DNA from: Chiloscyllium plagiosum
Taxonomy: Eukaryota
Assembly: GCF_004010195.1 (NCBI RefSeq)
Contig: NC_057757.1
Coordinates: 597,996 to 635,149, forward strand
DNA: 37,154 bases
Reading direction: 5' to 3'
The translations under genes were made by a program, and so were the position numbers. Under the pieces are notes generated by a model, which was not told the origin of the DNA, searched no databases, and saw only the letters and a list, made by a program, of their open reading frames with translations. Positions 5,999 through 29,318 of the stretch are shown here, piece after piece; position 1 is the first letter of the stretch; every line of letters starts with the position of its first letter.

Positions 5999-7150
5999 TG
6001 GTGGGCAAGTTGTTGGAGGGAAAGATTTATATGTATTTGGATAGGCAAGGACTGATTTGGGATAATCAACATGGCTTTGTGCATGGGAAATTATGCCTCA
6101 CTAACTTGATTGAGTTTTTTGAAAAAGTAATGAAGAGGACTGATGAGAACAGAGCGGTGGACGTGATCTTCAGGAAGGCATTTGACAAGGTTTCTCATGG
6201 TAGACTGATTAGCAAGGTTAGATCACATGGAATACAGGGAGAACTAGCCATTAGGATACAGAACTGGATCAAAGGTAGAAGACAGAGGGTGGTGGTGGAG
6301 GGTTGCTTTTCAAACTGGAGGCCTGTGACCAGTGGAGTGCCACAAGGATTGGTGCTGGGTCCACTGCATCTCGTCATTTATATAAGTGATTGGATGTGAA
6401 CAGAGGAGGCATATTTGGTAAGTTTGCAGATGACAGCAAAATTGGAGGTGTAGTGGACAGCAAAGAAGGTTACCTGAGAGTACAATGGGATCTTGATCAG
6501 ATGGGCCAATTGGCTGAGGAGTTTAATTTAGATAAATGTGAGGTGCTAGATTTTGGAAAGGGAAATCAGGGCAGGACTTAATGGTAAGGTCCTGGGGAGT
6601 GTTGCTGAACAAAGAGACCTTGGAGTGCAGGTTCATAGCTCCTTGAAAGTGGAGTCGCAGGTAGATAGGTTAGTGAAGAAGGCGTTTGGTATGCTTTCCG
6701 TTATTGGTGAGAACATTGAGTACAGGAGTTGGGAGGTCATGTTGCACCTATCCAGGACATTGGTTGGGCCACTTTTGAAATATTTTGTGCAATTCTGGTC
6801 TCTCTGCTATAGGAAGGATGCTATTAAACTTGAAAGGGTTCAGTAAAGATTTACAAAGATGTTGCCTGGTTGGAGGGTTTGACCTTTTGGGCGAGGCTGA
6901 ATAGGCTGGGGCTGTTTTCCCTGGAGTGTTGGAGGCTGAGAAGTGACCTTATAGCGGTTTTTTAAATCATGAGGGGCAAGAATAGGGTAAATAGATAAAG
7001 GTCTTTTCCCTGGGTTTGGGGAGTCTAGAACTAGAGAGCATAGGTTTAAGGTGAGAGGGGAAGATTTAAAAGGGACCTAAGGAGCAACGTTTTCACACAA
7101 AGGGTGGTGTGTGCTAGAGGAAGGGGTGGAGGCTGGTACAGTTACAGCAT
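5999..7150 (+). mobile_element. Decayed CR1-type LINE (RT), continuing at 8545-8615 after a PLE insertion
   Basis: NQHGFVHGKLCLTNLIEFF, FRKAFDKVSH, VTSGVPQG.VLGP, KFADD motifs across frameshifted ORFs. Confidence 0.95.
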
Positions 7151-7566
7151 CCAGTCCCTGTACACCTCCATACCCCATCACGAAGGACTCAAAGCCCTCT
7201 GCTTCTTCCTTTCCTGCCGTACCAACCAATACCTTTCCACTGACACCCTCCTTCGACTGACTGAACTGGTCCTCACCCTGAACAACTTCTTTTTCCAATC
7301 GTCTCACTTCCTCCAAACCAAAGGAGTAGCCATGGGCACCCGCATGGGCCCCAGCTATGCCTGCCTCTTCGTAGGATATGTGAAACAGTCCATCTTCCGG
7401 AGCTACACTGGCACCACCCCCCACCTTTTCCTCCGCTGCATCGATGACTGTATCGGCGCTGCCTCGTGCTCCCACAAGGAGGTTGAACAGTTCATCCACT
7501 TTACCAACACCTTCCACCCCGACCTCAAATTCACCTGGACCGTCTCAGACTCCTCTCTCCCCTTCC

Positions 7567-8240: not shown

Positions 8241-8437
8241 CATCTTGTCTCAGTCAAATCCCTCGAACTCAGCACCGCATTCCTAACCTGCAATCTTCTT
8301 CCTGACCTCTCCGCCCCCACCCCCACTCCGGCCTACCACCCTCACCTTGACCTCCTTCCACTATCGCATTTCCAACGCCCCTCCCCCAAGTCCCTCCTCC
8401 CTAACTTTTATCTTAGCCTGCTGGACACACTTTCCTC

Positions 8438-8473
8438 ATTCCTGAAGAAGGGCTTATGCCCGAAACGTCGATT
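8438..8473 (+). ncRNA. Minimal hammerhead ribozyme motif in the PLE 3' terminal repeat
   Basis: CTGAAGA(8442-8448)-a-gggc ttat gccc-GAAA-CGTC(8469); core and stem II intact, stem I weak. Confidence 0.7.
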
Positions 8474-8610
8474 CTCCTGCTCCTTGGATGCTGCCTGACC
8501 TGCTGCGCTTTTCCAGCAACACATTTTCAGCACAGTTACAGCATTTAAAAGGCATATGGATAGGTACATGAATAGGAAGAGTTTAGAGGGATATGGGGCA
8601 AGTGCTGGCA

Positions 8611-8697
8611 AATGAAAGAAGCAAGAAGTGAACTTAGTCAGTTTTCTACATTGGCCATGTAGAAAACTGACTAAGTTCATTTCTTGCCTCTTTCATT
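8611..8697. repeat. Near-perfect inverted repeat: 41-nt arms, 5-nt spacer
   Basis: 8611-8651 vs reverse complement of 8657-8697: 39/41 identical. Confidence 0.95.
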
Positions 8698-12476: not shown

Positions 12477-14689
12477 CATCAAAAACATTGTAAGGGGTGT
12501 CGATAGGTCTGAGCAGAGAGCTAAGCCTTCAGTTATTTGCATGAAGCCACTTACATGACTTTGCAGCTGATGTGGCCTTTGAAGATGGAGGTTACAAAAA
12601 CATATTTTCACATCTGAGGTTTTGTGACTGTTGTGCAATCACAGTTACATACTGTTCTGTTAGATTTGTAACGACCGGTGATATTGTGCTCCTGTTGATT
12701 AGACACTTGCCTGGTGGTTTGAGAATACTGTGCATATATGCTGTACTTGGTCAGTGAATGTTAAATGTTTGAAAGTGCAAGTAGGAGCAGCTGCTTTCTC
12801 AACTTCAGAGAAACTCTGGAGTGAGTTTCCAAAGTGCCTAGAAGATCCATTGGAGCCAGCCACACACACACACTCAACTCATTATGCTTTAATAAAACAG
12901 AAAATGTTTGTAAATGTTCAGCAGCATTAATGGAGAGAGGAAAACAGAGTGAACATTTCAAGTCAGTAACCTTTGGATTAACTTGGTCTCTGTCTCCACA
13001 GATGTCTGACCACCTGAGTATTTCCAGCCACCTCTGTTTGATTTCAGCCTTCCACATCTGCAGAACTTTACTTTTGGATTGGGGTCACACTTTGTCAAGC
13101 TCTCAAAGGTGTCTTGGTCTCTTTGGCTTTACAGTCAGGATGTAATCATGGCCTGGATTATTGTGCCATTATTAATTGTATGCTGATCCTGGAATTGAAT
13201 GACTCCACTGAGGAGAAAGAGGAAGGCTACAAGTTGAAAGGTGTTCATCTGGAGAAAGGCGACCATGGAAACTGTTTCTGACATGGTGTTCAAGGTGCCT
13301 TCGGTGCTTTAAATCCTGTTCACTAAAAAATGCCCTTTAACTGAAGGAATTGAATCTCCGAACAAAAAAGACTTTGGATTTCAAATAGTGATTTTGTGTT
13401 CCATGTGTTTGAGATTCTTTTTCACAAGTATTTTCAGGATGACATTCCAAGCTTAATCTCTCAACACTATAACCCTATGACCTTGCTCATTTTCTCATAT
13501 GGGGTTGGGGAAGAGAGGTTTGCTAGAGTGAAGAAACTGATGCAGCCAACTGGCACTTTGGAGCCATTGCTTTAGGGACTCAGTAAAACAGGAGCTAGAG
13601 GCAAGGAGGAGAATTTTCTTGTCCTACGTTGCTTATCCAATCAACCCTTCTCTCCCCACAAAAAGAAGTCTCGTCTTTGCTCATCCTGATAATCTGATTG
13701 CAGCTGGCTTTAATTAGACCAAGATGGATGGATCCAGTGGTAGTGGAAATTTTGCCTTGGGAATGTTTCTAAAGCCAAAAATGTCCACGTGGGCCTAACA
13801 GCCAGTGTTCAGTTATATCCCAGCTTGGTATTAGTTACTTGACATATTCAGATACAAAACTAGAAGCTAGCTCATAGGGTATCGAAAATGAGATGGAGAG
13901 GAGTCATTTGATATTCTAATAATTGTGGGGAATTTGGGGGTTCTGCTCCTGACATCCTCTATCTGTCTTGGACTCAACAGCATCACTTCACACCCAATCA
14001 AAACCATCCTCTATTCCCAAGAAATCTGCGGCCCTTTCTTAGGCTGCAGCTCCCCATCTGCACATCAGTGTCAGTGTGAGAGATTCTCAGTTACATTTCA
14101 TGGTGTTTGAGTACTGATAGGGATATGTACTAATTGTGGGAGATGGTGGGATGGGATGGGTTCATCTTCTACACGGGTTCTCTTACATTTGAGTATATCT
14201 GATATAATGCAGACATGAAGGTTTATTGTTGTTTAAATCTCCTGCTGCCAATGTTCTTCATGTATATCACTGTTGGATTGAATTGGATTTCCTATCCCTT
14301 GTATTGACACAATAAAGATTTGAGTCTTGAGCATATAGCAAATGTGAAATGTGGTTTCTGTTGAGATCTAGTACCAGTGTCAGAGTATGATGAGAGGGGT
14401 ATCTTTGCTGATGGACAAACACAGTTTCTCCTACATCCCAAAAAGTCTAGTGGTGCTCCCAAGCTGTATATGCTGAACCATTTTGTCCTCTAGTCCCCCT
14501 CTCTGAGACAGACTCTCATAGGAATGCAAGTCATTGGCAATCTTCAAAGACCATTTCTATTCTTGTATTTGGGTAGGCTCTTTGGCAGTGATATTCCTCA
14601 TAACTACTAAAAGAGAGGTTGCATTGGCTACAGTTATTTTCCTTGTTTGGGGGGGGGGAAACGAGGAAAGAAGAGTCTGAGATGCACAA

Positions 14690-15720
14690 ATATTAGGGGC
14701 ATAGATAAAATTTTCCCCTTAGTAGAGGGTTCAATTTCCAAGCAGCATGGATTTAAAGTATGGAGCAGGAGGTTTAGAGAAGACTTAAGGAAAAATGTTT
14801 CAACCCAAAGGTGGTGGATACTGAGAACTCCCTGCCTGAAAGAGTGGTGGTAGAAACGTACAGGCTAGGAGCAGGAGTAGGCCCTTCAATATGATCATGG
14901 CTGATAGGGTAAATCAGTATCCTATTCCCACTTTTTCCCCTGTACTAAAAGGAAGTCTTTAGCCTAAGAATGAGATCTAATTCCATCTTAAATGTTCAGA
15001 TTGCATACAGTTCTGGTCACCACACTACCAAAAGGAAATGGATGTTTTGGAGAGGATCCAGAAAATGTTTACCAGGACATTGCCTGGTATCAGGGATTTT
15101 AGCGATGAAGAAAGGTTGGATAGAATGGGTTTGTTTTCACTGAAATGCAGGAGGTCGAGGGTGACCTGATTAGAAGTTTAAAAGATTGTGAATTGTATGG
15201 ATAGAGTGGGAAGTACGAGGCTTTTTCCCAGGGTGGAGGGGTCAGTTACTAGGGGGCACAGGTTCAAGGTGTGGGGTGGGGGTATGCTTAGTGCGAGGCA
15301 GGTTTTTCCCACACAGGATGGGGAGTGTCTGGTATGCACTGCCAGAGGTGCTGGAAGCAGACAGAATAGCAGCATTCAAGAAGCACCTGGACAAGGACAT
15401 GAATAGGAAGGGAATAGAGGGAACCGGATCCTGTAAGTGAAGACACATTTTGCCCTTCCATTCAAAAACTGTCAGCGCAGGCTTGGAGGGCCAAACAGCC
15501 TGTTCCTGTGCTGCATTGGTCTTTACTCTTATTCAATGTTTTGGCCTCTAACGCTTTCTGTGGTAGAGAATTCCACAGATTGACCAATCTGAGTGAAGAA
15601 ATGTCTCCTAATCTCAGTCCTAAATGCCCTTCCCTGTATCCTTCAACTGTGACCCCTGGTTCTAGATTCCCCAGTCACTGGGAACATCCTTCCTGTCTTT
15701 ACCCTGTCAAGACCCGTTTG
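14690..15720. mobile_element. Cluster of CR1 LINE 3' fragments (+ 14690-14850, + ~14995-15520, - ~15535-15720)
   Basis: IFPLVEGS..K.HGFKV and LFPRVEGSVTRGHRFKV CR1 C-terminal motifs. Confidence 0.8.
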
Positions 15721-16234
15721 AATTATATTGTTTAACAGACCTTGCTGTCTGAAAATTGGCTGCCATGCTTCCGATGTTATAACTTGGCTGCATTTAAAAT
15801 TGTGTTAAAATGTGCACCTTGGGTAGTGCAATGTGTTGTTTTTCTTACAATTTTCTGGCCTACTGGAAGTATGGTCTCTAAACTGGATTAGATGGGCATT
15901 TTACACTTTCGTTTTGCAGTGAGGGGAAGAAAATTGTTCTGAAATCACCCATAAATGTATTTTTGTCTCTTCCTGCTGAGTTACCTGGTTCCATTAGCTT
16001 AGCTCCTTTTAAAATTAAATTCTGTTCTGGCAAGGCATACCATCATGAATCATCAGAATTAACCTATGTTTAATGACTCACAGATTACTGTGTCAAAGCC
16101 TGAACATTCTGCTGCAAGCATTTTCAATTTAAAGAGTCTAAAAGGCTTAACTTTGTTCCTCCCTACCTTTAAAGGTGGTCGTTCCTATAGTTCTCCTGAT
16201 ACTGCTTTTAACAGTTAGACTCTAGGCCAACTAT

Positions 16235-17350
16235 TTTTTTGCTGCTCCATCAATGACCTTCCCTCCATCATTATAGTCAGAAGTGGGTCTTTTCTGCTGC
16301 TGATTCTGTACCATTTGCAATTCCTCAAATACTAAACAAGTCCATGTGGAAATGCCGCAAGACTTGGACAAATTCAGGTTTGGTCTGACAATCGATAACT
16401 AACATTATAAATGTTATGTTGCAAATCATCATTGAATTCTCCATTATCAACATGGTGGAGTTTACTATTGAATAGAAATTGAACTGAGCCAGTAATATAC
16501 AGTAAATACTGTGGCCAAGAGGTCAAGTCACAGGCTAGGAATCCTGTAGCAAGTAACTCACCTCTTGTTTTCCCCCGTTGCCTGTGCACCATATACAAAC
16601 ACAAGTCAAGTGTATAACGGAATACTAGACTCATAGAATCCCTACAATGTGGTAGCAAGTCATACGACGCATTGCACCAACCTTCCAAAAAGCATCCACC
16701 TACCCCATCCCTGTAATCCTGCATTTCCCATGGCTAACCCACCTAGTCTGCTCATCTTTGTACGTTTTGGGACAATTTAGCATGACCTGCACATCTTCCC
16801 CCTCAGACCTGTGAGAGGAAACCCACCCACATGTGGGGGAAATGTGCAAATTCCTAATACACTAGCCAGAGGGTGGAATCGAATCTGGATCCCTGATGCT
16901 GAGAGGCAGCAGTGCTAACCACTGAGCTACCGTGCCGCCCTAAATACTCTACATTTGTCTGGTTGGGTGAAGCACCAACAATGCTCAGGAAACTCCAAAT
17001 CAGGTTGGTTGGCATCCCATTCACCACCTTCAAAATCCACTCCTTCCATCACCAATGTCCAGTGACTGCAGTGTGTACCTTGTACAAGATATGCCTCAGT
17101 AAGTCACTAAGGCTTTTCTGACAGCAGGTACATGGGAACACCACAACTTGCAAGTCCCTCTTCGTGACTTTTAAAGATTTTGGCTGTTCCTTCACTGTCA
17201 TTAGGTCAAAATCCTGAAACTTCCTTCCTAAAAACAGTGTGAGTGTCATTATACCACAGGGACTGTGGTGATACAAGGCAGCAGCTTGCTGCCATTTTCA
17301 TTGGGGATTAAAATGCTGACCTACTCAATGATGTTCACATGCTGTAAACT
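16235..17350 (+). mobile_element. Decayed LINE (same family as 31450-34520), split by a SINE
   Basis: catcaatgaccttccctccatcat..gtcagaagtggg and later segments are collinear with 33630-34500. Confidence 0.7.
16627..16940 (-). mobile_element. tRNA-derived SINE (elasmobranch HE1-like) with CR1-type tail
   Basis: Minus strand gggcggcacggTAGCTCAGTGGttagcactgctgcctc...GATTCGATTCC (A/B boxes); aatact on both flanks (16621-16626, 16943-16948). Confidence 0.85.
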
Positions 17351-17769
17351 ATTTTAAAAAAAATGTTAATATGGAATGGACTTTGATTCAAAGGCTTGGT
17401 TTCTCTGAACCTACTGATGGATGCTACAGTGAGGGGTCACTGCTTTTTGTTTACAGAAGGACAGAGACACTTCACTGAGTTCAAATAGCTTTAGGAAAAA
17501 CAATTTGGCAAAGGTTGAGGGTGAACGGCGTACCATACAAGAAACCAGTAATCAGTGACCATCCGGATTGATCAATCATTCAAGCGCATCAGTTGATTGT
17601 TCTTATTATACCTTGGGAATCAACAGAGCCAATCTGCCCCAGAGGCTTGGTTCAGTTGCAATTTTTTTATCACTTGGAATGTTTGTTCCCCTTGCCTTGA
17701 TGTCGGATCATCCAGTAATCATTAGTTAGTTAGGCTTAGCAGTAGATGCAGAACAAGTAGAACCCAGTA

Positions 17770-18030
17770 ACAGTCTCAAAATAAAGGACAGGCCGTTTGG
17801 GAATAAGGTGAGAAATTGACCAGAGGGTGATGAGTATTTGGAATTCTCTACCCGAGAGAACTGTGGAGGTTCAGTCCTCAAGTATATCCAAGACAGTGAT
17901 CAATTGATTTTCAGTTATTAAAGCTGTCAAGGAATAGAAAAGAGTGCAGGAAAATGATGTTGAGGTAAATCAGCTACGAGCTAGAATGAAGAAGCAGTGT
18001 TAAGGGGCTGAATGGCCTCTTCCTGCTCCT
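17770..18030 (+). mobile_element. CR1 3' tail fragment
   Basis: tggaattctctacc..agaactgtggagg and ggctgaatggcctcttcctgctcct, typical CR1 tail. Confidence 0.65.
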
Positions 18031-18759
18031 AAACAGTGCAAATGCAAGCACTTGCTATGTAGACAGGAATGGAACAGGCAGCAGCATCACGCTATGAAGA
18101 TATGAGTACATTACCAGCATCTCCCTAACTGTATGGTTTCAAGATACAGATTAAAGTGTTTAACAACAGGTTTTTCTCCTCCCTGACTAATGTACATCAA
18201 ACTCTGGTGACAAAGAATGGTTCACAAACCATGCTTCAAGCCATTATCATCTCCATTTCCCTCATCAGTGCGAGAAGAAGCAAGTACCTTTTAGATGGTG
18301 AGAGGGTTTATGCAGCACACTTTGTAATGTGCCAGCATGGTCTTGACATTTCAGATGTTTAATACTTGGCTCATTTCAACCATTATTTTGTGAGGCTAAA
18401 TGTTCTCTCAGACTCCTGGGACAAGGGCTTGCTGAAAGCTATCTTGTCATTGTTTTCCATATTCCACCATCCATTTGGATCTTAAAAGATTGAAAACCAC
18501 ACGTGTGATCACTGGCTATCCACTGATTCGTGCACTGCTTCAGCTAAAAGATCAACTCTCCTCAGCTCAAAGTACCTTTATAGCACCTCTTGATTAAAGA
18601 TCAAATCACATTCCTTCCCTTTGCAGTTATTTCAATGTTCAATAATTAAACAACTATCATACAAGGCAATCTTAGCCAGGTTGAATGACATCGGATAACA
18701 AGGAGTGGACAGATAATTGAATAGAATCTATAGCCCAAAAAAAAGGATATTTTTATCCA

Positions 18760-19080
18760 CCTGGCGTTTTCCTACCTCTAGCGTACTTCCTTCAATCTAC
18801 TCTACTCCATTCACTGTTCATAATGTGGTCTCCTCAACATTAGCAAGACCCAAAGGCAGACTGGGTGACCACTTTGCAGAAAGTCTCCACTCAACCTGCA
18901 AGCATAACTGCAACTTTCTGGCTGCTTGCTATTTCAATATCCCGTCTTACTCTTATCTCTCCTAGGTCTACAGCAGTGTGCCAGTGAAGTCTGGTTCAAG
19001 CTGGAGGAACAGTACCTCATTTATCATTTAGGCACTTACATTTTGGATTCAATGTTGAGTTCAAGAATGTCAGACCATGA
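18760..19080 (+). mobile_element. Decayed Penelope-like GIY-YIG endonuclease fragment
   Basis: RLGDHFAE-like segment and gaggaacag.acctcat..ttaggcac motif, similar to 27880-28140. Confidence 0.6.
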
Positions 19081-19649
19081 GCTCTGCCCACCATTTTGAT
19101 TAATTCAGCCATGTTTTTTTTTGCATGATTTTGCACTCAGAACAGCTGATGAATATTCTGCTATTAACTCCTAATCTTCCTCTCCCTGTAAAATGGTTGA
19201 ACGGTAGGGTTCGGGGCCTAGCTTTGCTGCTCCTCTCCCTTGTAAAACTGCTGTCTTTTGTGTACAGCTGTCAATGTTTTTTGTAAACTGTTTTGTAATT
19301 TGTTTAATAAAAAAAAAATTAACTCCTAATCTAGATCTAATTTGCTTCTCTACAACCATTTTTTTCTCCATGAACTACCATTTTGTTTCACTTGATGCTC
19401 CCCATCTTTCTCTACAACATAAAATCCACATTTCTGCTTTCCTTCAGTATCAGACTTGAAACCTCAACTGTTTCTCTATCAACAAATGCTGCTCGACACT
19501 TTGTTTCTATTTTAGCAAGATACTTGATTGTCAAGGGAGTCAATGGTTAACAAGAGACCAGTAGTAAAGTGGGTTGAGGCCACATTCACATTAACCATGT
19601 TCTTATCAAATCACAGAGCTGACTTGAGAAGCTGAATGACTCTTGCTTC

Positions 19650-20430
19650 TAAGAACATAAGAACTAGGACCATTCAGCCCCTCGAGCCAGCTCCACCATT
19701 CAATACGATCATGGCTGATCTCATCTCTGCCTCAACTCCATTTTCTATAACCCTTCAACCTGTTACTAATTAAAAACTCTGCCTCTCTCCTCAAATTTAC
19801 TCAGTGTTGTGGCATCCATTGCACTTTAACATTAACAACTCTGAGAAAAGTAAGTTCTCTTCATCTCAGTTTTAAGGTAAGTGGTAGCAGATTTAAAACA
19901 ATGACCTCTCATCTTAGACTGCCCTATGAGGAAACATCCTTTCCATGTATACTCTGTCAATCCCTTTTAGAATCTTATACACTTCTAGTTGATCACCTCT
20001 CATTCTTCTGAACCCTCAGCAAATTAGACCTCAACTACTCAAAATCTCTTCATAACACAAACCCCTCATATCTGGGAATCAATCCAGTGAACCTCCTCTG
20101 AATTGTCTCCAATACATTACACCCCTCCTTAAGGGCTGGCCCAAAGTTAAACAAAGTACTCCAGGTCCAGTCTCAGTAATGCCTTTTACAGTTGCAGCAA
20201 CAATTACTTACTTATTTATCCTTTAGCAGTAGATGCCAAAATTCCATTCACCTACCTTTTTAATGCTGTACCTGCTGATTAGTTTTCTGTGATTTCATGC
20301 TCAAGGAAACCCAGAGCATGAAGCACTCTGACACTTCTCTCCATTTAGATAATAAGTTGCCTTTCTGTTCTTCTGACCAAAACCGATAACCTCTAGCTTT
20401 TCATGTTAAACTCCATTTGCCAAATTTTAG
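19650..20430 (-). mobile_element. CR1 LINE 3' part, minus strand
   Basis: Begins with (aagaacat)n tail then accattcagcccctcgagcc, the reverse complement of a CR1 3' end. Confidence 0.75.
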
Positions 20431-20451
20431 CTAATTCTAATTTTCACCGTT

Positions 20452-20657
20452 AAAAATAACCCAGCACCAGGTTATAGTCCAACAGGTTTAATTGGAAGCA
20501 CACTAGCTTTCGGAGCGACGCTCCTTCATCAGGTGATTGTCAGAGCGACGCTCCAAAAGCTAGTGTGCTTCCAATTAAACCTGTTGGACTATAACCTGGT
20601 GTTGTGTGATTTTTAACTTTGTACACCCCAGTCCAACACCGGCATCTCCAAATCATG
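20452..20657. mobile_element. Short palindromic PLE-terminal-repeat element (family B) with ~13-16-bp TSD
   Basis: Arms ~20450-20523 and ~20543-20617 are near-perfect inverted repeats; tctaattttcac(c/a)gtt at 20436-20451 and 20658-20673. Confidence 0.88.
20501..20535 (-). ncRNA. Intact minimal hammerhead ribozyme motif
   Basis: Minus strand cac-CTGATGA-a-ggagc gtc gctcc-GAAA-GCTA-gtg: stem I cac/gtg, GC-rich stem II, palindromic AGCT stem III. Confidence 0.8.
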
Positions 20658-20859
20658 TCTAATTTTCACAGTTGTAGACACACCACAGATGACCTGAGTG
20701 ACAAACTCTGGCTGAGAATAAGGGACACTGTGTGCTATCAGAAATGCTGGTGTAAACTTGAACCGCGTGTCAGTGCTAGCTACGGTCTTGAACAGGGTGT
20801 AGGGGTGCTGACCAGGACAAAACATGTCTCCAATTGGCCTAAAGGTCAAATCATAGGAT

Positions 20860-21290
20860 ATTCACAAAATCTCACTTATTTTTAATAAAACCTTAAGTTA
20901 TCTCAGTACTGTGACTTGAAAGAAGTTCTGGGATTTACATATTAATCAATCTAAACCTGCATCCTCATTCTAAGTGATTAAAGATGTAACAGGAATCTAG
21001 GTTTGTTCAATACACCTGAAGAGCTTATGCCCAAAATGTCGATTCTCCTGCTCCTTGGATGCTGCCTGACCTGCTGTGCTTTTCCAGTACCGTACTCTCA
21101 ACTCTGATCTGCAGCCCTTACTTTCTCCTTGTTCAATACATTGCATCAATTGTATAACACTTTGATCTTTTACTATAAATTTTGTGTCCTATGACCCTGT
21201 CCCACTAGCTACCTAAGGAGCAGCGCTCCGAAAGCTTGTACTTCCAAATAAACCTGTTGGACTATAACATGGTATTGTGTGATTTTTAAC
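20860..21290 (+). mobile_element. PLE family-B 3' end with nested 114-bp family-A fragment (21015-21128, 12-bp TSD)
   Basis: 21213-21290 matches the 20543-20617 arm; ttgttcaataca duplicated at 21003-21014 and 21129-21140. Confidence 0.75.
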
Positions 21291-21904
21291 AAAAATCTGG
21301 GGCAGTCAATTGCACTGATACTGACAGCACCTGTGGACAGAACTAAGCTTTTGTTAAAACTGCAAGTCGAGCACCTAAAGAATGTCCCACTTTCTTTGAA
21401 AGCCTTTTCACTGTCCGAGATATAAACTGTCCCTAGGCCAATCACCTCATCCCTAAGTCGAGAATCAGTCTGGTGAAACTTAATTGAGTCCCTTCTTAAC
21501 CCAAGAGAGACATGCAAGCCTGAGTCATCTTGCAGACTTCAAAATGGAGTTTTGGTAGGTTAATTTACAAGTACTACTCTTGATTCCTCCACCCAAGTCC
21601 CGGGTAGGCAAGTCTAACCTTGCCAGGAGGGTACCAAAATTTTCTTTCTACAAAGGCTGCCAAACATGCAGGCATTCTGCACCTCACTGGGGCCAGAATG
21701 TCAGCTCACATTCCTTTGTTTGCTAATGAATGGGACTTTGTGACGAGATGTCCCAGACACGTGGTCACCTCAAAGAGTGGGGATACCCATTTAATCCATC
21801 ACATGCTAAATCTGGGAGAGAGGCATTTCTCAGATGCCGAAACAAAAGATGGTTGTAAAGCGGTGAACTTCGCGCCCACCCTACCAGCGGGCCTGAAACA
21901 ATTC

Positions 21905-22195
21905 TTTTAAAATGGCATTTTTTTTTTGTCTGTCTCTCTCTCTCTCTCTTTCCGGAAGTGATCAATTCGCGACGTGTCAACCGAACGTGTTGATCAGGGC
22001 GGGGCGACGCCGCCAGGAATGGGCGGGACCGGACGTTCGCGGGACCAATCAGGGGCTCGGCCGCATGCTGAGCGACGGGAGCCGCCACCAATCGGCGGGT
22101 GCGGGTGGGCGGGGCCGGGACGGCCAGCAGGTTCGGCTGCGCCCGCCGGCCGCCTATAAGAGGGAGAAGCAGCGTCGCCCCCGCTCTCTCTGCTG
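21905..22195 (+). promoter_or_regulatory. EIF4A1 CpG-island promoter: YY1-like 21909-21916, ETS 21952-21960, CCAAT 22045 and 22088, GC boxes, TATA 22155, pyrimidine-tract (TOP/TCT-like) start ~22184
   Basis: aaaatggc, ccggaagtg, ccaatc x2, gggcgggg, tataagag, and ctctctct ~30 nt after TATA; CpG-rich ~21950-22960. Confidence 0.85.
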
Positions 22196-22317
22196 TGGCG
22201 GGCGCGGCGACTGAAGGCGTGTTTAAAGAGCGGGTGTGTGTGTGTGGGGGGATAAAAAATTAAAAGTCTTGTCGCTATCTGACCTTTCCCAACGAAAAAA
22301 AAAACGGAAAATTTATA

Positions 22318-22343
22318 ATGTCAGAAGACGGCGCGGAATACAG
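22318..22343 (+). CDS. EIF4A1: eIF4A1 exon 1 (MSEDGAEY-R)
   Basis: First ATG after the promoter, A at -3; CAG|gtatca phase-2 donor joins exon 2 in frame. Confidence 0.8.
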
Positions 22344-23843
22344 GTATCACAAACGGGGCGGGAGTATGCCTTAAAAGAAAGGGCTGGCGAACGAAATCGG
22401 TCTCCATTCATAAATCGAATTCGTGTTGAATGACATGAGTTAGGGGAAAAAAAAACTGTGCCACAAAATGGCCGGACGCTGGGAATGGAAGAGGTGGGGG
22501 TGGGGAGGGGAAAAAAGGGAGATTTTCATATTGCTGTCGTCTCGGTTTTCCCTTTAAACCCCGCTCCCGTCAAAACTTTTTATTTTTTTTTATATATATT
22601 TTATTCTTGAAAGAGAAAATTGAGCGAGGGGACAATGGCTTTTTGACTTGGCCTTACCTTGTGTCTCCGTGTACTCGCCCGCGACCGGTTGGTCGGTTGG
22701 AACCAACGGTCGTTTTAATTTTGTAATCGGACCGTCCGAATTGGCCGCTGGTGGGGGGGGTTGGGGTGGTGTCCCGCTCCCCGTACAACTCCTCCGGGCA
22801 CTTTCTGGGGGGGGGGTGGAGAGAAGTGGGCTGGGCCATGCGTCTCGCCAGTGCGCAGGCGCTGCGCTGCACCCTCCCACCTCCGGCCCGCGCCATGGTG
22901 TCCGCATGGATCCCCGCGCTACGCATGCGTGCTCACTTCCGCATCTCTTAGTAGTTAGGTTTGGGGGGGCGGCGGGAGAGAAAGAAGATCTATAACAAAT
23001 TATATAGAGAGGCCTGATGATAACCGGCGCAAAGGGTTTGAGACACTGGGGTGTGATGATACTGGGTGTAGAGGGTTGAGCAAGTTATAAATTCGCGGGT
23101 GGAGAGGGGGCTTAAGAAACGGTACACGGGGGGAGGGGGTGGGAAGATGATAACCAGTCGGGGAGCGGGTTCAAGAAATTATACGGTGGTTCAATATGTT
23201 AGCGGTCTTGGGGCATTGTACAAGAGCATGATCCCCGCTGGGTGTGGCTTTGAGTTCGACAAGGGTGTGATAATGCCGTTGGGAGGTTTAAGGAGTTGTA
23301 CAAGGATACAGTTATATCCTGTGGGGGGATTTAAGGAGTTAGGGTTACAATGGTCCTTAATGGGGTTTCATGAAGTAGACCTGGCTGTGACCAAACCCTG
23401 AAGAGGTGTCAGTGGAGTTTGATTGCCTGGTCAGTCTCTTGAGACTAACTTCCCCATCCTATTTGGGGACATCAGGAATCAGCCATTTGAGCCATTGTCT
23501 GACCAATGTTTGCTCCATAGGGGTGAAAGTCTTCCCCTTTCTCATAAATCTTGTGTAATACTCGTCAGTTTGTTTTATAAGTGAAAGTGGAAGTTCAGCT
23601 TCTGATTGCTAATGTGTTATTACACCATTTGAACACTGCAGTGACCCTATCAATCTCACCTTTGTGGTAATTTCCTTTTCTTTTCCTGCTCCCAATCATG
23701 TCTGTGTTGCATCTTGGGTCTTGGAATCCTCACTCTTATTTGCATTCCCACCTTTTTAATACTGAGCAATTGTGTACCGGTGTTGAATTTCTTAAAATAT
23801 TGTCTTAATTTGAAATGTGACACTTACTGATTTTACTTTTCAG

Positions 23844-23895
23844 ATCTAATGATCATGGTGGACCTGATAGAATGGAACCTGAGGGTGTTATTGAG
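23844..23895 (+). CDS. EIF4A1: eIF4A1 exon 2 (SNDHGGPDRMEPEGVIE)
   Basis: ttttcag / GAG|gtgagt; eIF4A N-terminal GP.GMEPEGVIE motif. Confidence 0.93.
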
Positions 23896-24014
23896 GTGAG
23901 TGAAATGAGGCTATGGGCTGAATGTGTTGGTGAGTAGTTTTGAACTTGTACAGTTGCAGTAATGCATATGCTTGACTGTATTTCCATGTGCCCTGGGTTG
24001 CTTAACACTTGGTG

Positions 24015-24155
24015 TGTCCCCATTCATTTGGCAAGGAGGTACCTTTTTGCTGTGGTACTGTAATTTGGTCTCAGTTGGGGTATACTAATGAATCCATATT
24101 CATCCCAGTGTGTTCTAATAATGAATCTACACTGGTTCATACTATGGTCACAAGA
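24015..24155 (+). ncRNA. SNORA48: H/ACA snoRNA SNORA48 homolog, copy 1 (intron 2)
   Basis: Two hairpins, H box atacta 24082-24087, ACA 24150-24152; 3' pocket TTCATC/TTCAT complementary to 28S AUGAA-U-G-GAUGAA; resembles recalled human ACA48 (EIF4A1-hosted). Confidence 0.85.
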
Positions 24156-24691
24156 TGTTGCATGAGACCGTGTACTGAAATCTATTACACTGTCAATCTA
24201 CATTTCCTGGGGAAGGGAATTCAAAAGCTATTTAACCTCTGGCGAAAGTTTTTGCTGTGGTCCCAAATGGTGAACACCTATCTAGTGCAAGGGGCCCTAG
24301 TATTAATTTCTCCATTTTGAAATCAGCATTTGCCTGTTTGGCTCTGTTCATTGAGATGTAATGTAGCAGGCGATCACTCTTGGTGAAATCTCTGCAGTGG
24401 CTCTTTGTCCTGTTCTTGCGCCCCATGTCTTTGGTGTGACTGAGTGATTGCTTCATGGAGGACCATTGTGAAATCAAAAGCTGATTTCCATATGGAAATA
24501 TCTACAGATGTTGGTTTTTATTGTTTTCTTTCTGTGGCTGTTGGTATGTCTTAACACACTGGAGAGGACCCTTCTGAAGGTGTTTTCTCGAGTTTCTCTT
24601 ATGATCAGTGAATCTTGAGCTTGAAGGCTGATGCAGTTGAGCCAAAGCATTGCTTTGCTTCCATTGACATTTTGAATGCTTGCATTTGCAG

Positions 24692-24824
24692 AGCAACTGG
24701 ACTGAGATTGTCGATAACTTTGATGACATGAACCTTCGGGAAAACCTGCTCCGTGGAATCTACGCCTATGGTTTTGAGAAGCCATCTGCCATCCAGCAGC
24801 GGGCCATTCTTCCCTGCATCAGGG
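24692..24824 (+). CDS. EIF4A1: eIF4A1 exon 3 (Q motif [13 protein letters not shown])
   Basis: 133 nt, AG/GT flanks. Confidence 0.97.
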
Positions 24825-25055
24825 GTAGGGATTGCACTGCTGTTTCCTGGCCAATCACAGGGGCATGTTTAGTAACAAGGTGATCACAGCATTGAGTGCT
24901 TCTCAAGAATGGTTGGCACTACCATGGGTTTGGAAGTTCATTCCTGGATATGCAGAGATCTCTCAGGGATGGGTTTCATAACGTGAGGAATTGTTTTAGC
25001 ATGCAGCATGATACATTTCCATTTGTATTACACTGCTTTGTGCTGGTTTCCAGTT

Positions 25056-25196
25056 TATCCCCAGTCACTGGGCAAGGAGGTACCATTTGCTGTGGTACTG
25101 TGACTTAATCTGATTTGGGGTATACTAATGAATCCATTATTCATCCCAGTGTGTTCCAACAGTGAATCTACACTGGTTCATACTATGGTCACAAGA
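25056..25196 (+). ncRNA. SNORA48: H/ACA snoRNA SNORA48 homolog, copy 2 (intron 3)
   Basis: Highly similar to 24015-24155; H box 25122-25127, ACA 25191-25193. Confidence 0.87.
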
Positions 25197-25338
25197 TAAT
25201 TGCATGCAAGCACCTGATCATTATTGTAAAGGGGATTGTGGGAGTTAGGCTTAGTAATGGGAGCTTTCTGCCCCAGATTCCTGAGCAGTTGCATTGAACG
25301 GGAGAAAGTAACTTGTGACCTACCTTCCCCTCTTCTAG

Positions 25339-25478
25339 AGTATGATGTCATTGCCCAGGCACAGTCGGGTACAGGAAAAACTGCCACGTTTGCCATCTCT
25401 ATCTTGCAGCAGTTAGATGTGGGCCTGAAGGAGACACAAGCCTTGGTGTTAGCCCCAACGAGGGAGCTTGCCCTACAG
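25339..25478 (+). CDS. EIF4A1: eIF4A1 exon 4 (motif I AQSGTGKT, motif Ia PTRELA)
   Basis: 140 nt, tcttctag / CAG|gtaatt. Confidence 0.97.
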
Positions 25479-25493
25479 GTAATTGTTTGTTTC

Positions 25494-25628
25494 TGCGTGT
25501 AACTTTAAATTGATGGTGGCCCCTGGCTAGTACAGACATTGAAAAATGCACACACAATCACATTGCTCTCAGAGCGGATCTTTGGATTTGTAAGACTCTC
25601 CTTTGTAGAGTTCTTGCAATGTACAGAA
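25494..25628 (+). ncRNA. Candidate H/ACA snoRNA of unassigned family (intron 4)
   Basis: tgcgt/atgca basal stem, H box acacaa 25552-25557, acattgc/gcaatgt basal stem followed directly by ACA 25623-25625; 135 nt. Confidence 0.55.
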
Positions 25629-25676
25629 AACTCCTAGGTAAGCTTTATTTTCTTTTTTCTCTCTTTATTTTCTTAG

Positions 25677-25845
25677 ATTCAGAAGGTCATAGTGGCTTTG
25701 GGTGATTACATGGGTGGGACCTGCTTCTCCTGTATCGGTGGCACCAGTATCCGATCGGACATGCAGAAGTTTCAGCTGGAGGCTCCACACATTGTGGTTG
25801 GGACTCCAGGCCGTGTATTTGATATGATGAACCGGCAGCATCTTT
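25677..25845 (+). CDS. EIF4A1: eIF4A1 exon 5 (GG doublet, TPGRVFD)
   Basis: 169 nt, long polypyrimidine tract + ag / T|gtaagt. Confidence 0.97.
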
Positions 25846-26438
25846 GTAAGTACATGGGTGGAAAGAGTTTAATTTGGGAGATTTGTAGAAGTGCCTCAAG
25901 CTTTATAGAAGGCACACAAGAGGCTGGAAGAGCACAGCAAGCCAGGCAGTATCAGGAGTTGACATTTTTGTTATAACCCTTGGGACTAGAGAGTAGCAGA
26001 ATGTTCAGGTAGTGACAGGTGAATGCAGGTGGTGGGTACGACCTGGTTGGTTGGGAAATCAAGCTTTATAGAGTTTACTTTGCATATCTCAAAAGTGCTT
26101 GCTACCTGCATGTACATCAGTGTAAGAAGCAGCTCATCAAAAGCAGTCACTGTTTTTGACTCCACCTTAAATCTTGAGCAGGATCGTTCTGTGTCTTTGA
26201 ACTCATGGCATCAGGCTATAGTCCAACTGGCTTATTTGAAATCACACTTTCAGAGCATTGCTCCTTTTATCTCATGAAGTTACTAGTTTTTATAAATGAA
26301 ATGATGGCACCTTTTAATTGGAGGGGTGGGTTCAGGGATATTGTTTGGCTTGTGTTGGGGGTTGGGGGCAGGGTGTGGTGGGGGAGAGATCTGATCAGTG
26401 ATGAATTGACTTGGTTTAAGTTTTATTTTAACTTCCAG

Positions 26439-26548
26439 CTACAAGATACATCAAGATGTTTGTTTTGGATGAAGCAGACGAAATGTTGAGTAGAGGGTTC
26501 AAGGACCAAATCTATGAAATATTCCAGAAACTCAACACATCCATTCAG
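26439..26548 (+). CDS. EIF4A1: eIF4A1 exon 6 (DEAD box)
   Basis: 110 nt; [34 protein letters not shown]. Confidence 0.97.
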
Positions 26549-26803
26549 GTACAGCAGCTGTTTGCTGGAGCAGGACCCTGTATAGTTTAAGTCATGTTTG
26601 CAGTCCTCTCTAAAACGAGTTGGTGATTGAAATGGGTATTCCTGGCAACTTGGAGGACCCATCCTGCAGATGCTGTTCAGGATAATTGGTGAAATATCAG
26701 GCATATTGGATCTGAATAACTTGGGTTTTCTGCATCAGTTTGCCACTAAGCTTGAAAGATTAATTCCTAGTTCCAGCTGCTTCTATGTTACTAATATATA
26801 AAT

Positions 26804-26977
26804 TGTCCTTTGCAAGCATCCTGCTGTAGCTGGGAACATTGGTTAATTCTGATGTTCTTAACAATGACAGTTGGATTTGTTGGGACATAGATTAATGCCC
26901 CACCCACATTGACTTGGGAGGAGTGGACCTCTTTCTTAATGTCCAGTGCTTTTACCTGTTGATGTGGTGGCACACTC
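26804..26977 (+). ncRNA. SNORA81: H/ACA snoRNA SNORA81-like (intron 6)
   Basis: Long 5' hairpin tgtcct..gggaca, H box agatta 26889-26894, ACA 26972-26974, 174 nt; gtggacctctttcttaatgtcca (26923-26945) matches recalled human SNORA81. Confidence 0.75.
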
Positions 26978-27033
26978 GCCAAAAGAGCTAACTGAGTGAT
27001 CAGTGTTTGAATACAGTCTTCTATCTCTTCTAG

Positions 27034-27177
27034 GTGGTTTTGCTTTCTGCCACAATGCCTTCTGATGTGCTGGAAGTGACCAAGAAATTCATGCGTGACC
27101 CAATTCGCATTCTTGTGAAGAAAGAGGAGTTGACGCTGGAGGGAATCAGGCAGTTCTACATTAATGTGGAGCGAGAG
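27034..27177 (+). CDS. EIF4A1: eIF4A1 exon 7 (SAT motif III)
   Basis: 144 nt; [48 protein letters not shown]. Confidence 0.97.
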
Positions 27178-27230
27178 GTGAGACACATTGGGACCTCTGC
27201 TTCAGTCGAGAGTTCCAGTCCAATTCAGCC

Positions 27231-27362
27231 TCCAGAAAGCTGTTTGTTTCAGCATGGCTTTGTGCCCTACTGGATTTCAGCTCTCTGGTAGAGAGACCAG
27301 CTGCACTCCACTGTGGATTACAATGTCAGTGTTTTTATGCAACTAAAATGCAGTTGACAGGG
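27231..27362 (+). ncRNA. SNORA4: H/ACA snoRNA SNORA4-like (intron 7)
   Basis: ccagaaagctg/cagctctctgg 5' stem; 3' pocket CTCCAC (27306-27311) + ACTAA (27342-27346) complementary to 18S UUAGU-U-G-GUGGAG, 15 nt from ACA 27357-27359. Confidence 0.78.
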
Positions 27363-27381
27363 TTAGCAGAATTGTGTATGA

Positions 27382-27609
<228 letters not shown>

Positions 27610-27744
27610 TAATTGCACTTCACTTCATGAAAGTTGTATTCCATTGTTAAAATAGGCTGCCCCTGTTTGTAGCAATCTGGTGACCAAATCTGGGGGTGGT
27701 TGTTTTCAATTAGGTATTTTCTCTCCTACGCAGCCCCCCCCTCC

Positions 27745-28430
27745 TCCTGCCAAAATCCCATCTTCCCCTGCCACTGCAGGAATTGCAAAATCTCTGCCTA
27801 CATTCCCCTGCCCTCCCCCCAACCTCTGTTCAAGGCAGAAAGGAGCGCCTCCAATCTAAATGTTTCACCTGCACTTCCCCACAGGCATTTAGTGTACCCA
27901 TTGCTCCCGATGCAGTCTCCTCTACATTGGGGAGACAGGATGCCTACTCGCAGAGGACATCTCCAGGACACTTGCACCAACCAACCCCCACCACCCATGG
28001 CTGAACGTTTTAACTTCCCCCTCCCACTCAAAGGATATGTAATTCCTGGGCCTCCTTCGCAACTCCCTAACCATTTGAGTCCTGGGGGAGGAATGTCTCA
28101 TCTTACACCTCTGGACCCTCCAACCACATGGCATCACTAGATTTTGCAAGTTTCCTCCTTTCCACTCTTACCTGTCCATCTTCCTTCCCACCTACTCGGT
28201 CCACCCTCCCCTCTGACCTATCACCATTACCCCCACCGTCCATCCATCTATTGCACTCAGCTACTCCCAGCCCCACCCCCTCATTTATCTCCACCCCTTA
28301 GGCTCCCAGCCTCAAGGACTTTTGCCCGAAACATCAATTCTCCTGCTCCTTGGATGCTGCTTGCCCTTTGCTTTTTCAGCACCCCACACTCTAATCTCCA
28401 GCATTTGCAGTCCTCCCTTTCACCGTACTT
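27745..28430 (+). mobile_element. Decayed Penelope-like element 3' end (GIY-YIG remnant + terminal repeat) in intron 8
   Basis: CRNCK..AY, FTCTS, ctctacattggggagac (LYIGET) and ttttgcccgaaacatcaattctcctgctcc terminal repeat. Confidence 0.8.
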
Positions 28431-28456
28431 CTCTCCTCACCTCCCCTGTTCCATGA

Positions 28457-28627
<171 letters not shown>

Positions 28628-29109
28628 TAACAGCCTTGTACCAGAGAAGGAGTATATGGCTTGGTATTGTGGTGATCTGCTGAAACTGTTTGAAGTAGAG
28701 CGCAGGGGAGTCTTGTGTGCCACATTCTTTGGATTTTGTAGATTTGGTGAAACATTGGCCTCGCCTGCACAGCAGATTCTGGACTTGGCCCAAGTTCACT
28801 AAATATGCAGTCAATGGTGCATTTTATAAAGCCTTGTCTAGAGCATTCAGTGAAGTGGGTCCCCTTCCTGTGCAGTGAGTGACCTTGCCTGTCGTTGGGT
28901 GGCTATGGTTGACATGAGTTAGGCCACTCGCTTTGGGTGAATGCAATCTGTTTAACTGCTGAAATGGAAACCCAGCCTGGAGGAACCGAGCTGGTCTGGC
29001 AGTATCTGGAGAATGAAATATTTGGCATTGGTTGGTTAAATCAAAAATGTTTGGAAACCACTGTCCCATGTCTGTTGTCATCACTAATAGAGCTACTGGT
29101 TTATTTTAG

Positions 29110-29189
29110 GCTCGTGGAATTGATGTGCAGCAGGTGTCCTTGGTTATCAACTATGATCTGCCTTCCAACCGTGAGAATTATATTCACAG
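29110..29189 (+). CDS. EIF4A1: eIF4A1 exon 10 (motif V ARGID)
   Basis: 80 nt; ARGIDVQQVSLVINYDLPSNRENYIH. Confidence 0.97.
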
Positions 29190-29318
29190 GTAAGTGGTGA
29201 GCAGTGTTTTTTTTTTTCACCACTGGCTGGTGCCTCTGCCTCTATGCAGGTAATCATATCACCCTGCCCCTCGCTCGCTCTCACTTTGCATCCTTGTGCT
29301 CACTCTCTACCCTCGCAG

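Follow-up and report, generated by a model that had tools for sequence, protein, structure and literature searches.

The window analysed here is a 37,154-nt stretch of Chiloscyllium plagiosum DNA, in which a gene of the eIF4A-I/II type spans 22155-29200 and a short palindromic insertion lies at 20436-20673, about 1.6 kb from the ATG of that gene (22318). One exon of the gene scored 70.2 bits against eIF4A-II and 68.4 bits against eIF4A-I; a second exon was uninformative on the paralogue, since no eIF4A-II chain covering that exon came up. A 150-nt intronic element is duplicated (24017-24164 and 25058-25206, 89% alike) and shows a weak match to SNORA48; it is likely to represent an unannotated pair of H/ACA snoRNAs. 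This weaker SNORA48 match, whose host gene we take to be EIF4A1, points toward EIF4A1 and against EIF4A2. An intron also contains SNORA81 (26802-26977, 46 bits against a gathering threshold of 45), and there is a weak match to SNORA4 at 27229-27361; both are hosted by human EIF4A2 (PMC8759569). These two snoRNAs suggest that the neighbouring gene is probably of the EIF4A2 type rather than EIF4A1. The initial annotation, which placed the insertion ~1.6 kb upstream of the EIF4A1 start, was thus correct in the distance and probably not in the paralogue.

A repeat search of the sequence delimited an insert of 206 bp (20452-20657) bracketed by 16-nt direct repeats. The left copy of this TSD (20436-20451) and the right copy (20658-20673, plus strand, also represented in flank contigs) agree over 16 nt with one mismatch and over 12 nt exactly; the left boundary of the insert is uncertain by 3-4 nt, because the last three TSD nucleotides (GTT) also match the element end. 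The inverted arms (20449-20523 and 20543-20617) are 75 nt long and 93% complementary, with five differences and a gap of 19 nt, and the insert was predicted to fold with -131.4 kcal/mol (z = -17.5), a stability reached by 0 of 200 shuffles. The earlier description of a TSD-flanked palindromic insertion with a short tail was therefore borne out. The insert comprises an inverted pLTR end without tail (20452-20540, minus strand), which starts 8 nt ahead of a hammerhead core and has three private changes close to its outer end, a 2-nt linker CA at the head-to-head junction (20541-20542), a direct pLTR end truncated within stem II (20543-20620, plus strand), and a 37-nt tail of a Penelope-like element (PLE) on this end only (20621-20657, plus strand), marked by pile-ups of family 3' ends. 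In 431 RNA reads of the family the sequence past 20540 is different and non-palindromic, and the linker fits neither arm's family continuation. The stretch 20600-20657 (plus strand), which runs into the tail, resembles a 3' splice site, with a T-rich tract and an AG near 20629-20630, and the last three letters of the tail are ATG; it is possible that the tail stretch derives from the intron end and start codon of the parent. A miRNA precursor was considered and rejected, as none of eight local Rfam matches reached gathering and the scores reflect only the long hairpin.

The window contains a second, unrelated hammerhead family, with the same palindromic layout at about 1829-2064 and a 9-bp TSD (1820-1828 and 2065-2073). 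The arms of this palindrome begin 6 and 8 nt ahead of the core, and the tail is present on the left end only. The second family is also represented by a single-arm stub at 21003-21140, which is flanked by a 12-bp TSD and lies just upstream of or within a longer first-family copy. Another second-family hammerhead repeat (8241-8530) comes after a reverse transcriptase (RT) fragment (7110-7562), across an N gap, and the two are probably parts of a longer PLE copy. The RT fragment scored below the cut-off for Pfam RVT_1, its Atlas neighbours were RVT_1, with 12% HTH_animal in one cluster, and a PDB search with it gave no matches. A decayed frame at 18717-18965 (minus strand) presumably resembles the GIY-YIG endonuclease region of PLEs. 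A further palindrome at 8611-8697, 87 bp long and near-perfect (92%), is related to neither of the hammerhead families.

The hammerhead motif and its predicted fold-back

The minus strand of the left arm carries a minimal type I hammerhead motif (20501-20535, descriptor match), composed of CUGAUGA at 20532-20526, an extra A, a 5-bp stem II with G10.1-C11.1, GAAA and a palindromic AGCU. It was the single match to a relaxed descriptor in the window, with 0.02 matches per window expected from 200 Markov-sampled controls. The core features of minimal hammerheads are present, i.e., CUGANGA, GAAA and UH, G10.1-C11.1, the extra base after position 9 and the palindromic 15.2-16.2, and the motif geometry predicts a cut on the minus strand between 20504 and 20503, at the position after CUA that had been proposed before. 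Stem I, however, has 3 bp, or 5 at most with a bulge, and its probability of pairing is about 0.14 in the isolated arm and about 0 in context; the term 'intact' used in the initial annotation fits the complete core, but not the hammerhead as a whole. In Rfam, no hammerhead family was found at gathering in the window, nor at E<=10 locally.

The motif shares with the minimal hammerheads of metazoan PLEs the same core, the extra base 9/10.1, G10.1-C11.1, the palindromic 15.2-16.2 and the lack of loop 3, and differs from those of Schistosoma in its shorter stems (stem I of 3 versus 4-5 bp, stem II of 5 versus 7-8 bp; PMC4209133). Pairs of minimal hammerheads on opposite strands, 100-700 bp apart, were noted in the same source already in 2014; in our insertion, by comparison, the second motif is truncated and the mirror arm pairs with the first. 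In the available part of the supplements of that paper, shark terms were not found. As stated previously, the right arm is without CUGAUGA and has AAAA in place of GAAA, which the comparison of the arms identified as G12>A. Selective inactivation of the right arm was rejected, since G12>A occurs at a CpG and is explained by CpG decay; the other deamination product (20512 G>A) is present in 9-16% of family depth.

In equilibrium folding of the whole element, with or without flanks, the probabilities of stem I and stem II were both about 0, and forcing both stems cost 37.5 kcal/mol. The mirror arm comes first in minus-strand transcription, so that the fold-back dominates the growing RNA (p 0.9997 at six of six growing 3' ends, equilibrium folding), and it pairs with stem II, GAAA and stem I of the hammerhead. 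According to these predictions, the hammerhead in RNA running through the locus would be held within a fold-back of 75 bp and is not expected to cut. The idea that it is oriented to cut promoter-antisense RNA is therefore not supported: the mirror arm traps the ribozyme by ~37 kcal/mol, which makes such cleavage unlikely, and minimal hammerheads depend on a partner, with weak cutting even in the dimer. In earlier studies, minimal hammerheads were inactive alone and weak as dimers (PMC4209133), eight of nine Xenopus hammerhead dimers gave no cleavage (bioRxiv 10.64898/2026.07.22.740005), and the Anolis hammerhead required protein and was dispensable for insertion in vitro (PMC11167929).

Relatives, the unfilled site and the insertion event

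To look at related copies we aligned to 20250-20849, at 88% likeness, contigs from organism A (X1) and from the related organisms B (X9) and C (X11), and raw single-cell poly(A) reads of organism A (X21, ~2% of the run, a 3'-end library). Contigs matching this region numbered 92,557 (X1), 84,907 (X9) and 77,441 (X11), and the summed core depth corresponded to 1.7-4.4 x 10^5 single-copy flank units. The number of relatives of the arms is thus on the order of 10^5, a rough figure only, since summed contig depth is not copy number. Two further first-family copies in the window (21215-21290 and 26208-26266) are single arms. Viral contigs yielded no relatives of the element, and neither did metagenomes with a 25-mer query; with a 17-mer, 81 metagenomic stretches were found, of which 80 were examined and all judged to be chance matches (best alignment 32 nt). 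The stretch 20330-20389 had a summed depth of 13,000-22,000 in all three DNA runs and is a fragment of another repeat, which breaks contigs near 20353.

Organisms A and B carry the insertion at this site, which is unfilled in organism C. For organism B this follows from two X9 records (18 and 24), which enter the element from each flank. The unfilled site of organism C was deduced from piece lengths and end distances, no joint being among the rows listed: X11 record 16 (328 nt) aligns to 20658-20849 and has 83 letters left over, exactly as many as in 20353-20435, and the X11 differences at 20394 and 20403 have equal depth (27.4) and lie at distances from the end that in both cases lead to 20436. 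Loose ends of family copies pile up at 20618/20620 and at 20655-20657, 37 nt apart, in each of the three DNA runs, and both classes of 3' ends lead into AT-rich flanks that are unrelated. The outer end of the left arm corresponds, in mirror image, to the first of these classes, and the outer end of the right arm belongs to the second. The centres, by comparison, are variable: among the joints listed (15 of 685, in a count that was itself incomplete), the ten that cross a centre were all different, and the linkers of other copies, among the rows listed (12 of 604), were short and variable. Opposite-strand joints from 20614-20620 to 20654-20657 were also seen (2-11 contigs per joint and run), which connect tail-less and tailed 3' ends, as well as head-to-tail joints (20607->20570, 20614->20581, 20619->20586); both kinds could be due to self-insertion or to 3' self-priming.

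These observations speak for one of the two origins considered in the initial annotation, namely an extreme 5'-truncated and inverted PLE insertion, which agrees with the empty site, the one-sided 37-nt tail, the varied centres and the published PLE layout. The other, a retrozyme-like family with a fixed junction, does not agree with the single hammerhead, the head-to-head rather than tandem arrangement, and the rare centre. Animal non-LTR retrozymes are likewise non-coding, pLTR-derived and of similar size, with a type I hammerhead, but they consist of units repeated head to tail, with two or more complete hammerheads (bioRxiv 10.64898/2026.07.22.740005), whereas the insertion is head-to-head with one. 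In four features, i.e., hammerhead repeat, inverted truncated repeat, one-sided tail and TSD, the insertion matches PLEs that encode an endonuclease (EN+), and it is known from its end module alone. The published EN+ insertions (PMC3846280; PMC8557442 Fig 2) show the same layout, with head-to-head inverted pLTRs, strong 5' truncation, a tail on one end (30-40 bp there, 37 nt here), a TSD and no poly(A) at the insert end. Compared with them our insertion is minimal, with 206 bp and no ORF between the repeats, in a family of ~10^5 copies; PLE insertions are often truncated to very short lengths (median 128 bp, PMC9977147).

We consider it highly probable that the locus records a single old retrotransposition event of an endonuclease-bearing PLE, with the palindrome formed at insertion and the hammerhead carried along as a passenger of the pLTR. 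At the locus, the duplicated AT-rich target encloses two element end modules, set head to head with a 2-nt linker between them. In the proposed mechanism, the element protein would cut both target strands and the free 3' ends would each prime a cDNA, at one of two reverse-transcription start sites, with 89 and 115 nt copied. Priming from the left flank at the tail-less site would have given the plus strand of the left arm, and priming from the right flank at the tailed site would have given the minus strand of the right arm; these cDNAs would then have been joined at their truncated ends through the linker. As the palindrome would then arise from this joining at insertion, it would not be a transposition unit. 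We infer two separate cDNAs as the source of the arms, which are of nearly the same subfamily, compatible with two templates or with one that was re-used. L1 twin-priming likewise creates its inversion at insertion, but from two non-overlapping stretches of a single RNA, whereas the arms of our insertion are both copies of one and the same end. The Poseidon PAc element of Anolis provides a biochemical parallel, as its protein cuts AT-rich DNA and cuts and extends both strands, and its reverse transcription begins at two internal sites that bound the tail (PMC11167929). In the available part of that source, as in our data, no RNA ends were seen at the ribozyme site.

As an alternative, less likely and still worth considering, only one cDNA would have been made, and the mirror arm would have resulted from a template switch at the palindromic stem II, by self-priming or fold-back, with either an antisense template (as proposed for rotifer PLEs) or the first cDNA being copied. 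The right arm indeed opens with the same 12-15 nt as stem II of the left arm on the same strand, as a direct repeat, its loop letter (A) is the complement of that of the left arm, and self-priming from junction palindromes has been proposed by Arkhipova 2013 (PMC3846280). However, this loop letter is a standing variant of the family, found in 8-18% of its depth, most other centres among the joints listed are away from stem II, and a simple fold-back yields no two distinct 3' ends, one tail-less and one tailed.

We regard as improbable that the insertion belongs to a small non-autonomous palindromic subfamily, in which the unit itself is transcribed and re-inserted by PLE proteins with new TSDs. 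The initial annotation had proposed to look for copies with the same arm junction; this was carried out with contigs, and the shared centre accounted for at most ~0.01% of family depth. Depth at 20542 was 0.007-0.024% of core depth in the three DNA runs, and that of this element's letter at most 0.006-0.014%, so that many copies with one centre, as in a MITE-like family, were not found, and a subfamily of a few tens of copies is compatible with the data. Expressed as upper bounds, the same letter amounts to ~54 (X1), 28 (X9) and 9 (X11) single-copy units, the last although organism C is without this insertion. Some other centres in X1 have a depth of 126.7, 133 and 360.8, in comparison to a single-copy depth of 6.92 (18-52 times), which together with the ~54 same-letter units indicates that a number of junctions have been re-amplified in some way. 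The centre is also spanned by one X1 contig of 93 nt (depth 26.8), with ten differences and one gap, and pLTRs suffice in cis for mobilisation in trans (PMC3846280). On the other hand, contigs in the same register mostly deviate at 20541 (C>A or G) or 20542 (A>G), or jump elsewhere (20542->20593, 20543->20598), only three first-mate plus-strand RNA reads cover 20541, two of them with another letter, and the fold-back of such a unit would mask the tail-less start site.

Co-option of the insertion as a ribozyme or terminator of upstream-antisense RNA from the EIF4A promoter appears very improbable. The complete core does lie on the gene-antisense strand, 1.6 kb from the TATA box, AUUAAA is present on both strands (20492 minus, 20574 plus), and the insertion was kept in two organisms. 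Yet the fold-back would trap ribozyme and poly(A) signal alike, stem I has only its 3 bp and a dimer partner is absent, other minus-strand AUUAAA hexamers (21795, 20886) come earlier, organism C does without the insertion, and one complete core among ~10^5 copies requires no selection; X21 gave no reads on the single-copy flank bins, which is weak evidence in ~2% of a 3'-end library. An assembly or read chimera, suggested by the fact that none of the contigs listed from the best run (X1) spans the exact centre, can practically be dismissed in view of the arms differing at 5 of 75 positions, the TSD and both flank junctions in another organism.

Polyadenylated family RNA and a tentative strong-stop model

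Over the left arm, plus-strand first mates of X21 reached a depth of 961-1358, compared with 62-89 in the opposite direction. A T-run directly preceded 20472 or 20475 in 483 + 399 = 882 reads (1348 first mates, 2540 records, PCR duplicates included). These poly(T) loose ends, which stem from raw RNA reads of other family loci, map two poly(A) sites at 20475 and 20472 (minus strand), 12-15 nt past AUUAAA at 20492-20487 and followed by a GU/U-rich stretch. The hammerhead-sense family RNA is therefore polyadenylated there; in about a third of X1 depth the hexamer is AAUAAA. Internal oligo-dT priming was judged unlikely, as neither the two arms nor the 21215 copy have an A-run following the site, and as none of the 18 DNA rows listed (with 1209 further loose-end rows beyond the listing) had a loose end of the poly(T) type.

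The poly(A) sites are located 29-32 nt beyond the hammerhead cut site, and the poly(A)+ family reads traverse the cut site with no drop in depth and no pile-up of ends reported. Uncut poly(A)+ family RNA thus exists; the reads are also compatible with some cleavage, because short cut products would be lost from the library. Upstream, the family reads continue in three sets (431, 346 and 186), two of them visibly alike and non-palindromic, and the reads originate in longer copies of the family at other loci. Mirrored into the right arm, the poly(A) sites fall at 20591/20594 and precede both classes of insertion 3' ends, hence an RNA that ends at them cannot supply the insertion ends from its 3' repeat. 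In the openly available literature that was searched, we found no description of a PLE poly(A) signal or of a strong-stop model; poly(A) tails are shown on a Chlamys transcript (PMC8557442 Fig 7).

Some features point to where the RNA may start. The longer copy of the family (21141-21291), which has a decayed core and lies outside the insertion, contains TATAAA at 21174 (its annotated part being 21174-21291, plus strand) and a CA at 21203/21204, 30 nt on and 9 nt ahead of the core position; the chance of such a spacing is ~0.3-0.4% for a 7-nt slot, calculated post hoc on one copy. By eye, the 20 nt upstream in this copy match the 431-read continuation at 14 of 20 positions. The left arm of the insertion terminates 8 nt ahead of its own core, and in the few second-family copies the arms start at -8, -6, about -2, +6 and +38 relative to the core, one arm being long. 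In Penelope, a 34-bp repeat is located at the ORF start (PMC2377424), and the RT start sites of PAc are within the first part of its ORF (PMC11167929). The PAc ORF starts in the hammerhead, while in our family that frame stops after seven codons.

The terminal repeat of retroviruses has the order TATA, start, AAUAAA and poly(A), with the RT start downstream. We tentatively suggest, as one of several conceivable routes, that the PLE family has a retrovirus-like R region and that the stubs are integrated strong-stop cDNAs. The mRNA would start about 8-9 nt before the hammerhead core, 30 nt past the TATA box, and would be polyadenylated 66-69 nt into the next repeat, ahead of both RT start sites. 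These sites would then be present only near the mRNA 5' end, and therefore reverse transcription would run off after about 90 or 127 nt; two run-off cDNAs joined head to head would make palindromes of ~200-215 bp. For full-length copies and pseudo-LTRs to form, synthesis would have to jump from the 5' copy of R to the 3' copy. Compared with the retroviral strong-stop the order of elements is the same, but PLEs prime on cut target DNA instead of tRNA and have no integrase. Alternatively, the template may possibly be a multimeric read-through RNA, as in the multimeric mRNA model proposed for PAc (PMC11167929); in our family, in contrast, poly(A) is added before the start sites. Schostak et al. 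2008 stated that the mechanism regenerating the pLTR was not obvious (PMC2377424), and the strong-stop model, if true, would supply one for PLEs.

As a locus, the insertion is ordinary, a clean and datable case of the known PLE layout, and it is unlikely to regulate the neighbouring gene. The main gain comes from the family RNA: what is new here is a working poly(A) site inside the pLTR, after A(A/U)UAAA, which is reached by uncut passage through the ribozyme site and lies upstream of the insertion ends. If the RNA also starts just before the ribozyme, then stubs, inverted repeats and pseudo-LTRs would share one explanation, run-off cDNA and a template jump, and this, if true, would bear on the way in which PLEs replicate. 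A further consequence would be a genome strewn with ~10^5 potential poly(A) signals, along with numerous long RNA hairpins.
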